This document shows, piece after piece, positions 26,981 to 32,116 of a stretch of DNA of 41,686 nt. Each line of letters begins with the position of its first letter. Within the stretch, counting starts at the first letter, position 1. The DNA lies in assembly GCA_000989675.1 (NCBI GenBank), contig LBOT01000005.1, positions 9,289-50,974 of the forward strand, read 5' to 3'. Below the pieces are notes generated by a model. That model did no database searches. It saw only the letters and a list, made by a program, of their open reading frames with translations, and was not told where the DNA came from. Source of the DNA: a candidate division WS6 bacterium GW2011_GWE2_33_157 (GTDB lineage: Bacteria > Patescibacteriota > Dojkabacteria > SC72). A program made the position numbers and the translations under genes.

Positions 26981-27805
26981 ATGAGACAACATCCCATACC
27001 ACAAAATGTCTTGGATGTAGAGTTCAAACTTTTTACAAAGTTTACTTTAAAAGAGTTTGCATACTTAGCTACAGGAGTAAGTATTGGAGGAATATTCCTC
27101 TATCTAACATCAAGAGGTGATATACCAGGAGTAATTGGTATACCAATATTCGTAATATTTGCGGGATTAGGAACATTCTTTGCACTTGTCCCTATCAATG
27201 ATCAACCTGCAGATAAAGCAATTGCGAACTTCTTTACTGCAATAAATAGACCTACACAAAGAGTATGGTTAAATGACAAACTAAAGGACGAAAGAATAAA
27301 GCCTGAATTAACAACAGGAGAGGAATTGAATAAACCTAAAATCATAGGTGCATCTGAAATTCCACCAGTACAAAAGATAGATGATTTTGATGAGAATCCG
27401 GGAGATGACATCCTTTCAGAAAAAAAACTGGTGGATATAGAACAAGTACAAAGTAGTAAACCTGTTGAGAATACAGAGAATATAATAACAATATCAGAAG
27501 AGAATATATCTAAATACCAATTCTCAATTAAGAGTGTGGACAAACTACCAGGTAACATTAATATATGGCTCTGTACTAAAGATAACCAACCACTCTCAGA
27601 TATAAACACATATCTAAAAGATATAAATGGTAAAATTCTGTATGCAAATAAAACTGGCCCAAATGGATATTTCCTTACAAATAAAGTATACCCAGAAGGT
27701 GTTTACATTATAGAGTTTGAAGGAGTACCAACTACAACACCTAGTTTAAGAATAGTTGTTAATAAAGATTTTAATAAATTACCATTAAGGATTACACTTA
27801 AATAA
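26981..27805 (+). CDS. PrgI/VirB3-like T4SS membrane protein fused to a C-terminal CarboxypepD_reg-like beta-sandwich
   Basis: The N-terminus IPQNVLDVEFKLFTKFTLKEFAYLATGVSIGGIFLYL plus a second TM (GIPIFVIFAGLGTFFALV) follows the PrgI-family pattern. The C-terminus INTYLKDINGKILYANKTGPNGYFLTNKVYPEGVYIIEF resembles carboxypeptidase-regulatory-like domains. Confidence 0.65.
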   Translation: MRQHPIPQNVLDVEFKLFTKFTLKEFAYLATGVSIGGIFLYLTSRGDIPGVIGIPIFVIFAGLGTFFALVPINDQPADKAIANFFTAINRPTQRVWLNDKLKDERIKPELTTGEELNKPKIIGASEIPPVQKIDDFDENPGDDILSEKKLVDIEQVQSSKPVENTENIITISEENISKYQFSIKSVDKLPGNINIWLCTKDNQPLSDINTYLKDINGKILYANKTGPNGYFLTNKVYPEGVYIIEFEGVPTTTPSLRIVVNKDFNKLPLRITLK

Positions 27806-28467
27806 TGGATACAAATGCAAGAGCAAGAACAATATCATCTACTCAGGATCATCTCGAAGTTAATGAGATACTGGATGATTTAATCATTACAAAAAGTGGC
27901 AGTGTTGCACTAGTAATACAAACATCTGCGATAAATTTTGATTTGTTAGCAGAGTATGAGCAAGATGGGAAAATATATGCATTTGCAGGGCTACTCAACT
28001 CCCTAAGCTTCCATATTCAAATAATGATTAGAACTAGAAGAATAGATATTTCAAACTATGTAGACTATCTTAAACAACAGGAAAATGACAGTATGTCTGA
28101 AGGATTAAAAAAACAGTTACAGATATATACTGAATTTATACAAAATCTAATTGTACAAAATGATGTTTTAGATAAAAACTTCTTCATTATAATACCTTTT
28201 AATCCGGCAGGAGAAATTCCAATGTCTAATATGTTACAAGCAAAAAAGAATAGAGAAGAACTTGAAAAACAGGTACAAATGAAACAAGATCAATTATTAG
28301 AAAAAGCTAAGATATTCCTATACCCCAAAAGAGACCATATATTAAAACAATTAGGTAGAATGGGTCTATTTGGACACCAACTTACAACCAAAGAACTAAT
28401 TACAGAGCTATACACAATATATAATCCAGATGAAGAGATACCAAAGAACGAAAATGGACAACAATAA
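27805..28467 (+). CDS. Hypothetical cytoplasmic protein resembling the N-terminal (non-ATPase) domain of VirB4/TraC-type proteins
   Basis: 220 aa with no TM. STQDHLEVNEILDDLIITKSGSVALVIQTSAINFDLL...LNSLSFHIQIMIRT...NFFIIIPF parallels TTQDIIAPIDIEVDFNTLQMGDYFSRTFFISGYP...INFEHSLRISTFYY...FFHFAMYVTIYA of the downstream ATPase. TAATG overlap with the upstream gene. Confidence 0.55.
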   Translation: MDTNARARTISSTQDHLEVNEILDDLIITKSGSVALVIQTSAINFDLLAEYEQDGKIYAFAGLLNSLSFHIQIMIRTRRIDISNYVDYLKQQENDSMSEGLKKQLQIYTEFIQNLIVQNDVLDKNFFIIIPFNPAGEIPMSNMLQAKKNREELEKQVQMKQDQLLEKAKIFLYPKRDHILKQLGRMGLFGHQLTTKELITELYTIYNPDEEIPKNENGQQ

Positions 28468-30820: not shown

Positions 30821-30982
30821 CACAATAACAAAGTATGTAATAACTGGGACTGATTTAAAGCAGTTTAAAGCAAACGACTATAAAACAAACAAGGTAGTAC
30901 CAAAGAGAAATAAGCAGAAAAATAGTACAGGATTAACAAGAGCAATGGATGCTTTAAAACTTAACAACCCATTTAAAGGAGT

Positions 30983-32116
30983 TTAACTTAGTGGTCCCTG
31001 ATCTGGAAGGACATACTCTTTAACATTTTCCGGAGTTATTACAATAGGTAGTGGTTGTCCCCCCATTATCTTTCTAGCAGCACTTCTTGCTAATGTAGAA
31101 ATATTTCTTTCTAGTTGACGAATACCAGCATCAAAACCAACAGGACGAATGAGCAATGGCCAAACACTCTCTGCTATTTGGATATGATTTGTAGTTAGGC
31201 CAATATTTGCAAGGACTCTTGGTAATATATATGACTTTGCAATAACTGCTTTTTCTTCATCAGAGTAACTAGTAAAACGAATAACTTCCATTCTATCTAG
31301 TAACGCAGCAGATAACCCACCTAAGTTATTTGCAGTACATATAAAAAACACATTAGATAAATCTACAGGATGATCAATATAGTGATCTATAAATGCGCTA
31401 TTTTGTTCTGGATCTAATACTTCTAAAAGTGCAGCCATAACATCATTTAACAAACCTCCATTACTACTAGCTTTCTCTATCTCATCTATTAAAATAACAG
31501 GGTTCATACTCTGAGTACGAATTAATGCTTTAATAACCTGACCTGGTTCAGAATCAATCTCATGTCTTGGTACACCCCTTAAAGTTCTAACATCACCTAC
31601 TGCTCCAAGTGAAATCCTTGCGAATTTTCTACCCATTGAATCAGCAATAGATTTAGCTATAGATGTTTTACCCACACCCTGTAAACCAACAAAAAGTAAA
31701 ACAGGTGCTTTAGCAGTACCATCACTCGCCTCTTTATACCCTCTTAATTTTCTTAATTGCATTACAGCAAGGTAATCAAGTATTAAATTCTTTACAGTTT
31801 CCATACCATAATGAGTTGAATCTAATACCTGTTTAGCATTCTGTATATTCAAATTATCTTCAGTTAAATTACCCCAAGGAATTCTTGTAACCCAATCTAC
31901 ATACTTATCTACACCCTCAAACTCAGTACTATAGTTACCCCATTTAGCCATTCTTTCCAACCTCTGAATAGCTCTCATAGTCTCTTCTTTTAATTCAATA
32001 GGGGAATTAGACGAAGATAACTTATTTTGTAATTCAATTATCTCAGAAAGAATATCCTTAGAAATATTTTGTTGTTGATCAATTGGAGTATTACTCCGAG
32101 CAGTATTTAAATCCAT
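30983..32116 (-). CDS. Lon-like AAA+ ATPase lacking both the LON N-terminal domain and the S16 protease domain
   Basis: YVDWVTRIPWG, Walker A GLQGVGKTS, Walker B VILIDEIEK, LEVLDPEQNSAF, CTANN, LLDRMEVI and GIRQLERN are near-collinear with the Lon AAA+ module. The ORF stops where the protease domain should begin. The start is set at MDLNTARS (ATG 32114-32116), preceded by TGATATATT-N5. Confidence 0.85.
   Translation of the reverse strand: MDLNTARSNTPIDQQQNISKDILSEIIELQNKLSSSNSPIELKEETMRAIQRLERMAKWGNYSTEFEGVDKYVDWVTRIPWGNLTEDNLNIQNAKQVLDSTHYGMETVKNLILDYLAVMQLRKLRGYKEASDGTAKAPVLLFVGLQGVGKTSIAKSIADSMGRKFARISLGAVGDVRTLRGVPRHEIDSEPGQVIKALIRTQSMNPVILIDEIEKASSNGGLLNDVMAALLEVLDPEQNSAFIDHYIDHPVDLSNVFFICTANNLGGLSAALLDRMEVIRFTSYSDEEKAVIAKSYILPRVLANIGLTTNHIQIAESVWPLLIRPVGFDAGIRQLERNISTLARSAARKIMGGQPLPIVITPENVKEYVLPDQGPLS

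Follow-up and report, generated by a model that had tools for sequence, protein, structure and literature searches.

A chromosomal operon that probably encodes the core of a Patescibacteria-type secretion system in Candidatus Dojkabacteria

We analysed a 41,686-nucleotide (nt) stretch of contig LBOT01000005.1 (the window), from the candidate division WS6 bacterium GW2011_GWE2_33_157, whose genome is a 613 kb draft in 29 contigs, 96.9% complete, and whose nearest relatives are Candidatus Dojkabacteria (WS6) assemblies. With a probability that we put at about 0.85, positions 26981-30986 of the window are the core operon, four genes long, of the Patescibacteria-type type IV secretion system (T4SS), which is encoded on the chromosome and inherited vertically. 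This system is already known and, at the level of the genome, it is not minimal; the locus has a modest added value, which comes from details specific to the class.

The core operon and its products

The listing of open reading frames (ORFs) contains four plus-strand genes that make up the core operon, with products given in amino acids (aa):

26981-27805, plus strand: PrgI/VirB3-like gene, 274 aa
27805-28467, plus strand: TrsD-family gene, 220 aa
28430-30820, plus strand: VirB4 ATPase gene, 796 aa, with another possible ATG at 28454
30789-30986, plus strand: fourth gene, encoding a 65-aa protein with an NPF[K/R]G motif

The junctions are tight throughout. The PrgI and TrsD genes meet in a TAATG, with a 1-nt overlap, at 27803-27807; the TrsD stop codon lies 14 or 38 nt inside the VirB4 gene, according to the ATG chosen; and the fourth gene starts 32 nt ahead of the VirB4 stop codon, with AGGAG just before its ATG. 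In around 70 related loci, almost all junctions of the core operon either overlap or are separated by just a few bases. A scan for promoters and terminators gave hits that were rarer than in shuffled sequence. An earlier reading of the letters of this DNA (the original prediction) had described three ORFs with the TAATG and the 14/38-nt overlaps, all of which we saw at the same positions, and had considered the three genes to be translationally coupled, as the overlapping junctions bear out. Its feature ended at 30986 and correctly included these three genes, but it left the fourth one, which lies inside that end coordinate (30789-30986), undescribed.

The product of the third gene reached 398 bits with the NCBIfam model NF045971, the VirB4 CD1110-family equivalog (cut-off, 325 bits), with other VirB4 models scoring far lower. 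It also matched the solved VirB4 C-terminal domain of PDB entry 4AG5 (E 6e-50), and its C-terminal domain aligned weakly with TrwK. The Walker A (AKSGAGKS) and Walker B (LLIVDEAW) motifs are both intact, in agreement with the VirB4-type ATPase of about 790 aa that had been anticipated, and they are maintained among VirB4 orthologues, with Walker A kept in 90 out of 90 and the DEAW of Walker B in 89 out of 90; the inactivation of the ATPase in orthologues, raised by the original prediction as an argument against itself, is thus not what we found.

A VirB4 was present in 146 of the 151 Patescibacteria genomes sampled, with 40-58% identity over residues ~100-663. This shared region is bordered by two charged extensions occurring only in Dojkabacteria, one N-terminal (residues ~1-100, window 28430-28730) and the other C-terminal (residues ~665-796, window 30420-30820). 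Among 75 Dojkabacteria sequences, the tail motif FEPPAxQxP was found in 27 and the motif H[ILV]TPQG in 66, and both were absent from 15 further loci, 14 of them outside the class and one in a different family within it.

The product of the first gene matches Pfam PrgI (PF12666) over residues 5-94 (E 2.5e-5, 25.2 bits). PF12666 appears likewise in the precomputed annotation of most of its orthologues, some of which are named 'PrgI family protein', and phmmer comparisons with the PrgI-like proteins adjoining TrsD in other classes gave values from 1e-14 to 1e-4. In an AlphaFold model built on 30 orthologues, the protein starts with a transmembrane (TM) hairpin, formed by helices 23-45 and 50-69, followed by an amphipathic helix. 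After a linker that is disordered in the model and poorly conserved in the alignment (residues ~109-164), it ends in a conserved beta-sandwich of CnaB/transthyretin-like type (residues ~168-273). The predicted local distance difference test score (pLDDT) exceeds 90 in the TM hairpin and in the C-terminal domain. The top Foldseek matches of the beta-sandwich in the PDB were CnaB2, the carboxypeptidase D regulatory domain, a BcpA pilin domain and transthyretin, with E values of ~1e-4. The hairpin, whose connecting loop has four residues, is rich in Lys/Arg on both flanks; the positive-inside rule, like the analogy with VirB3, would place the two ends in the cytoplasm, so that the CnaB-like domain is probably also on the cytoplasmic side of the membrane. 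Homologues of PrgI reach 333-691 aa in several other classes, indicating that PrgI extensions are not unique to Dojkabacteria. The Pfam match, the annotation of the orthologues and the modelled hairpin together support the two-TM protein of PrgI/VirB3 type that had been proposed for this gene.

The 220-aa product of the second gene matches the NCBIfam TrsD/TraD model (NF041427) with an E value of 2.2e-7, under the model's full-length cut-off of 200 bits. It further matches positions 100-235 of a VirB4 model from mycoplasma integrative and conjugative elements (ICEs; VirB4_plasma, E 1.1e-6), the same model of which the product of the third gene covers positions 204-893. PF26593 is precomputed on TrsD homologues, and the identity of TrsD across Dojkabacteria is 55-85%. 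The AlphaFold model (pLDDT 72) had TrwK/VirB4 of R388 as each of its ten best PDB matches (probability 0.87-0.99, E 6e-3 to 9e-2), and both this fold and the family match fit the soluble protein, resembling the N-terminal part of VirB4, that had been predicted. Because the matched positions are N-terminal to those matched by VirB4, TrsD resembles a module split off from the extreme N terminus of long VirB4s rather than a recent duplicate, as judged from the NCBIfam coordinates and the fold. A close paralogy between TrsD and the N-terminal domain of the downstream VirB4 was also considered, but no similarity between the two could be detected in sequence (BLASTP E 0.32; hhalign probability 0.1).

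The position of TrsD directly upstream of virB4 is kept in the Dojkabacteria loci and in most loci from other classes. In one locus from the same class and another family (L085, genome G116, 7401-10413), the TrsD and VirB4 genes occur without a recognizable PrgI gene directly upstream, and next after VirB4 comes an ORF of 104 aa, SSB/OB-fold-like in appearance by eye.

The fourth gene encodes a hydrophilic protein of 65 aa here and of 65-111 aa among relatives, the middle section of which reads YLVT...DL..L..AE.K and whose C-terminal motif, aLxLxNPF[K/R]Gx, is invariant. Of 69 Dojkabacteria loci, 68 have a gene encoding the motif, and in almost every case it overlaps the VirB4 gene. We found no annotation and no known family for its product, and its relatives in the databases form 33 clusters, all of them hypothetical, without Pfam domains and restricted to WS6/Dojkabacteria.

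Secretion system genes elsewhere in the genome

The original prediction described a minimal module with none of the other T4SS parts, and no VirB6-like protein or hydrolase in the window. Indeed, none of these parts adjoins the operon; nevertheless, the genome encodes a VirB6-like protein, an M23 peptidase and two VirD4-like ATPases, and the two leftmost genes of the window begin an operon that encodes the first two of these proteins beyond its edge.

The VirB6-like protein was recognized through other classes. We compared 16 loci from other classes, most of which have the order PrgI-TrsD-VirB4 and many of which contain a large protein with 7-9 TM segments adjoining the core. These polytopic proteins are homologous to one another; one of them has a weak match to Pfam TrbL/VirB6 (E 4.5e-5), and a shorter polytopic protein directly upstream of PrgI has a weak match to the CD3337/EF1877 mobilome membrane protein. 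When used as queries, the polytopic proteins of other classes led to a single protein here, encoded at C5:6224-7741 (phmmer E 6e-22, 6e-13 and 1e-5), and hhalign paired this protein with the core-flanking polytopic proteins of other classes with a probability of 98.5% (E 2.6e-15). A direct search of the genome with Pfam TrbL/VirB6 (PF04610) returned nothing or sub-threshold matches, and no VirB6 structure was found when profiles of the VirB6-like family were compared with PDB sequences.

This gene is part of a tightly packed minus-strand operon of seven genes, located on contig C5:1339-11102 and corresponding to window 3-1814 plus ~8 kb to the left of the window:

Window 1494-1814, minus strand: operon gene 1, 106 aa, one TM segment
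Window 3-1448, minus strand: operon gene 2, ~524 aa, its frame running off the window end; N-terminal TM helix, FN3-rich by eye
Contig C5, minus strand: operon gene 3, 462 aa, secreted and Cys-rich by eye
Contig C5:6224-7741, minus strand: operon gene 4, VirB6-like, 505 aa, 9 TM segments
Contig C5:3526-6216, minus strand: operon gene 5, 896-aa membrane protein with a C-terminal M23 peptidase domain (E 8e-6)
Contig C5, minus strand: operon gene 6, 317 aa, one TM segment
Contig C5, minus strand: operon gene 7, 395 aa, SH3 domain

The order of the seven genes is conserved in four relatives. In this genome the operon lies ~27 kb upstream of the core operon, and the VirB6-like gene was found in five out of five relatives searched, at 37-42 kb from VirB4 where both share a contig. 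The 896-aa M23 protein resembles a 904-aa M23 protein encoded directly downstream of VirB4 in a genome from the comparison set (G003). A family search with the ~524-aa protein yielded no match. The seven-gene operon is the probable source of those T4SS parts that lie in the envelope, its first two genes being candidates for a role in them.

Two ATPases of the coupling type (VirD4/TraG-like), both with an N-terminal TM region, are encoded on other contigs:

Contig C12:13171-15693, minus strand: VirD4/TraG-like ATPase, 840 aa
Contig C3:54431-56893, minus strand: VirD4/TraG-like ATPase, 820 aa

They are paralogues and both are conserved in five relatives. By eye, the gene on C12 adjoins an integrase-like gene and a short ORF resembling the read-through of a tRNA gene. 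The genome also encodes ComEC, on contig C24, and PilC-like proteins, the latter recognized by eye.

Searches of the genome for further components were negative. There was no match to the relaxase families PF03432 and PF01076 (Mob_Pre), which were the MOB families scanned, other MOB families not being included. TcpC (PF12642) was absent; it was the only VirB8-like family scanned, and neither PF04335 nor structure-based detection was run. For pilins, T4SS_pilin (PF18895) produced only a 15.9-bit match inside a 437-aa protein and TrbC (PF04956) produced none, in a genome that is 96.9% complete; the small two-TM proteins of loci from other classes have no homologue in it either. The absence of the two relaxase families is in line with the original prediction, which saw no relaxase in the window. 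The core genes lie among housekeeping genes, with conserved synteny (see below).

A self-sufficient VirB3/VirB4 module for DNA import, comparable to the archaeal Ced system and with no need of VirB6, a hydrolase or a coupling protein, would account for the fact that no other T4SS gene adjoins the operon in any Dojkabacteria locus examined, as well as for the lack of a detected relaxase or pilin, and roles in uptake have been proposed in the literature (PMC11665869). However, this comparison, which was put forward in the original prediction, fails on scores: VirB4 obtained 59 bits with the CedB model NF041017 (cut-off 700) and 23 bits with the CedD model NF053655 (cut-off 600), whereas with 398 bits it passes the cut-off of the conjugative CD1110-type model. 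Moreover, the VirB6-like protein, the M23 protein and the two ATPases resembling type IV coupling proteins (T4CPs) are conserved in the genome, and its own ComEC and PilC-like proteins could serve for DNA uptake. In Southlakia epibionticum ML1, transposon sequencing (Wang et al. 2023, Cell, as cited in PMC12102498) is reported to have shown that epibiotic growth requires the T4SS genes but not comEC or t4cp (PMC12102498, PMC12857230, PMC11665869), and in S. epibionticum the deletion of comEC ended competence while viability was kept (PMC12857230). We therefore regard a self-sufficient import module as improbable.

Quite improbable, too, is a working system for conjugation or DNA export, operating with an unrecognized relaxase and with the unlinked VirD4-like ATPases. 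The conservation of two T4CP-like ATPases speaks for it, as does the location of one of their genes beside an integrase-like gene and an ORF resembling tRNA read-through (by eye). Against it stand the lack of matches to PF03432 or PF01076 and a published survey in which relaxases were almost always absent, being present in only 103 of 3,035 genomes (Quinonero-Coronel et al. 2025, Microb Genom, PMC12102498); also, the same source reports that t4cp is not essential in S. epibionticum, unlike the other T4SS genes.

Chromosomal position and neighbouring genes

The core operon occupies the same place throughout the class. The order is rpsT, two genes for membrane proteins, lepA, recF, PrgI, TrsD, VirB4, the small fourth gene and a convergent gene for a Lon-like AAA+ protein, downstream of which follow sufS, dcd, thyX, glyA and folD. 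The placement between recF and the Lon-like gene is kept in around 70 Dojkabacteria loci, among which VirB4 identity is 60-83%; the conservation of VirB4 and TrsD is similar to that of LepA and higher than that of RecF. The G+C content of the operon is no different from that of its flanks, the window contains no tRNA, and there was no integrase-like product among the window ORFs examined. In some relatives, extra DNA lies beside the operon, separating either recF from PrgI or the small gene from the Lon-like gene; its products, inspected by eye, are ABC-transporter-like, nucleotidyltransferase-like or otherwise unrelated, and include no T4SS parts.

From this position, the G+C content, the lack of a tRNA or an integrase-like ORF and the unrelated nature of the inserted genes, it follows that the core operon is an old, vertically inherited chromosomal feature and not a decayed mobile element. 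The nearest VirB4 type is the conjugative MPF-FATA/CD1110 one, and going by a published tree the system may have been acquired from monoderms long ago (PMC12102498), but that the operon is the remnant of an ICE that has lost its other genes is highly improbable, given its identical position in around 70 genomes across the class, its very high sequence conservation with intact ATPase motifs, a G+C content matching the flanks, a window without tRNA or, among the ORFs examined, integrase-like products, and the phylum-wide occurrence of the system, with VirB4 in 146 of 151 sampled genomes. No complete ICE or conjugative context, which the original prediction had looked to in related genomes as a sign of such decay, was found in the relatives.

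The flanks had been described as recF upstream and a convergent Lon-like ATPase downstream, and both identifications held:

30983-32131, minus strand: free-standing Lon AAA+ module, matching positions 251-566 of a 795-position Lon model

Since the match is limited to these positions, the protein lacks the N-terminal and protease domains of Lon. Its gene converges on that of the NPF[K/R]G protein, with overlapping stop codons, an adjacency shared by almost every Dojkabacteria locus, the exceptions being those with an inserted ABC-transporter gene.

Some other observations concern the surroundings of the operon. In five loci (L026, L028, L033, L078 and L082), PrgI is immediately preceded by a divergent gene of 256-292 aa, nucleotidyltransferase-like by eye; the window lacks this gene and has recF directly against PrgI. 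Further away in the window are the following features:

22877-23981, plus strand: genes for a 182-aa protein with four TM segments and a 201-aa protein with one, without family match and always in the rpsT-lepA interval in Dojkabacteria
34058-35653, minus strand: 531-aa ThyX-like protein, a tandem ThyX in which Pfam Thy1 matches two stretches
10340-11134, plus strand: sortase gene, confirmed with Pfam
37837-38511, minus strand: second gene, sortase-like by eye
38483-41362, minus strand: an example of the large, repeat-rich surface proteins encoded near the housekeeping block

The sortases and repeat-rich surface proteins around the housekeeping block suggest a heavily decorated cell surface.

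Proposed role and comparison with known systems

The survey cited above (PMC12102498) defined a monophyletic clade of Patescibacteria VirB4 proteins nested in MPF-FATA. Their most abundant partner is TrsD, mostly adjoining virB4, VirB3/PrgI is usually associated with virB4 and the T4CP gene is usually far from it; VirB6 is scarce or undetectable in some classes, which its authors explain by divergence. The preprint version of that work names Dojkabacteria as carriers. The PrgI-TrsD-VirB4 core without a relaxase was thus already published (PMC12102498; PMC12857230), and the locus does not represent the poorly described system that had been suggested. Conversely, a non-conjugative role in host contact, which the original prediction had considered as plausible as conjugation, is the reading favoured in the literature, where effector delivery and nucleic-acid uptake (the latter in PMC11665869) have been put forward for the patescibacterial T4SS; in addition, a 2026 preprint on another lineage describes tube-like structures at the interface between parasite and host, together with the acquisition of host RNA.

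By reference to the R388 structures (7O41, 8RTB) and to monoderm systems, VirB4 would form a membrane-proximal ATPase assembly, anchored to the membrane by the TM hairpin of the PrgI/VirB3-like protein and with TrsD contributing, as a separate polypeptide, the N-terminal-most VirB4-like module. The VirB6-like polytopic protein would be the membrane channel, and the M23 protein may act as a local wall hydrolase. On the basis of the literature, the T4SS would serve host-dependent (epibiotic) growth, and not conjugation, by moving a macromolecule between the cell and its host.

Several points weigh against this assignment to a Patescibacteria-type T4SS. The PrgI score of the first gene product is just under the curated cut-off of 27 bits, and the placement of VirB4 in the monophyletic clade is putative, going by an identity proxy (146 of 151 genomes). 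The VirB6-like assignment is indirect, the Dojkabacteria protein itself having no Pfam or NCBIfam match, and the putative link between the core operon and the VirB6-like/M23 operon comes from homology and from adjacency in other classes, not from experiment. Neither a VirB8/TcpC-like protein nor a VirB2 pilin was detected, which leaves the envelope-spanning part unaccounted for. Finally, what is known of essentiality and of a function related to the host comes from a Saccharibacterium only, a member of another class.

Few machines have been shown to be indispensable to the epibiotic life of these ultra-small bacteria, and the patescibacterial T4SS is one of them. Our locus adds no new kind of system to it, and shows instead how the T4SS is laid out in Dojkabacteria, with the core at a fixed site between recF and the Lon-like AAA+ gene and a second operon, tens of kilobases off, for the VirB6-like protein and the wall hydrolase. 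In the literature searched we did not find the small VirB4-coupled protein with NPF[K/R]G, the CnaB-like domain at the C terminus of PrgI, the Dojkabacteria-specific VirB4 tails with H[ILV]TPQG, the split two-operon layout or the conserved, convergent and stop-overlapping neighbour encoding a protease-less Lon AAA+ protein. The first two of these and the split gene layout are possibly new details at the level of the class.

More tentatively, and with doubts that outweigh our confidence, we suggest that Dojkabacteria may run a form of the patescibacterial T4SS devoid of pilin and relaxase with two class-specific core parts, the fusion of VirB3 to a probably cytoplasmic CnaB-like domain and the NPF[K/R]G protein. 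The latter could be a new dedicated subunit, adaptor or substrate, and its tail might, for instance, bind to VirB4 or to the protease-less Lon AAA+ protein. This unannotated small protein with an invariant C-terminal motif could be a testable partner or substrate of the machine and, if it does dock in this way, it would offer a handle on what the machine recognizes and moves between the cell and the host.

Among known systems, archaeal Ced shares with the locus a VirB4/HerA-like ATPase, few recognizable partners and a non-conjugative role, but it has no PrgI or TrsD partners, and its CedB and CedD models scored far under their cut-offs here. The R388 Trw inner-membrane complex (PDB 7O41, 8RTB) is similar in that the TrsD model matches TrwK/VirB4; it differs in being from a diderm system with VirB7/VirB9/VirB10, a pilus and VirB11, and in that its VirB4 is a single polypeptide. 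The monoderm MPF-FATA systems, for which we considered Trs of pGO1/pSK41, Tra of pIP501, Prg of pCF10 and the CD1110 type of Clostridioides difficile CTn2, are closer, with a VirB4 that passes the CD1110-family cut-off, a protein of the TrsD family (pGO1 subclass) and a VirB3 of PrgI type. Unlike in these systems, no relaxase, adjacent coupling protein, VirB8/TcpC-like protein or adhesin was detected here, and, in contrast to MPF-FATA systems and ICEs, the T4CP-like genes are on other contigs and the locus is not on a mobile element.

The T4SS of the Patescibacteria clade has the same VirB3/PrgI-TrsD-VirB4 core, in a chromosomal housekeeping context, without a relaxase and with the T4CP genes far from virB4. 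VirB2-like pilins occur widely in this clade, though not in all of its members; arrays of them, abundant in Saccharimonadia and Microgenomatia, were not detected in our genome, and the VirB6-like and M23 genes are in a separate operon ~27 kb off instead of adjoining virB4. The neighbours of the core are also different, being recF and lepA here, and not dnaA and dnaN. Likewise, it is in comparison with this clade that the PrgI protein with a C-terminal CnaB-like domain, the class-specific tails of VirB4 and the small NPF[K/R]G protein coupled to virB4 distinguish the Dojkabacteria locus.

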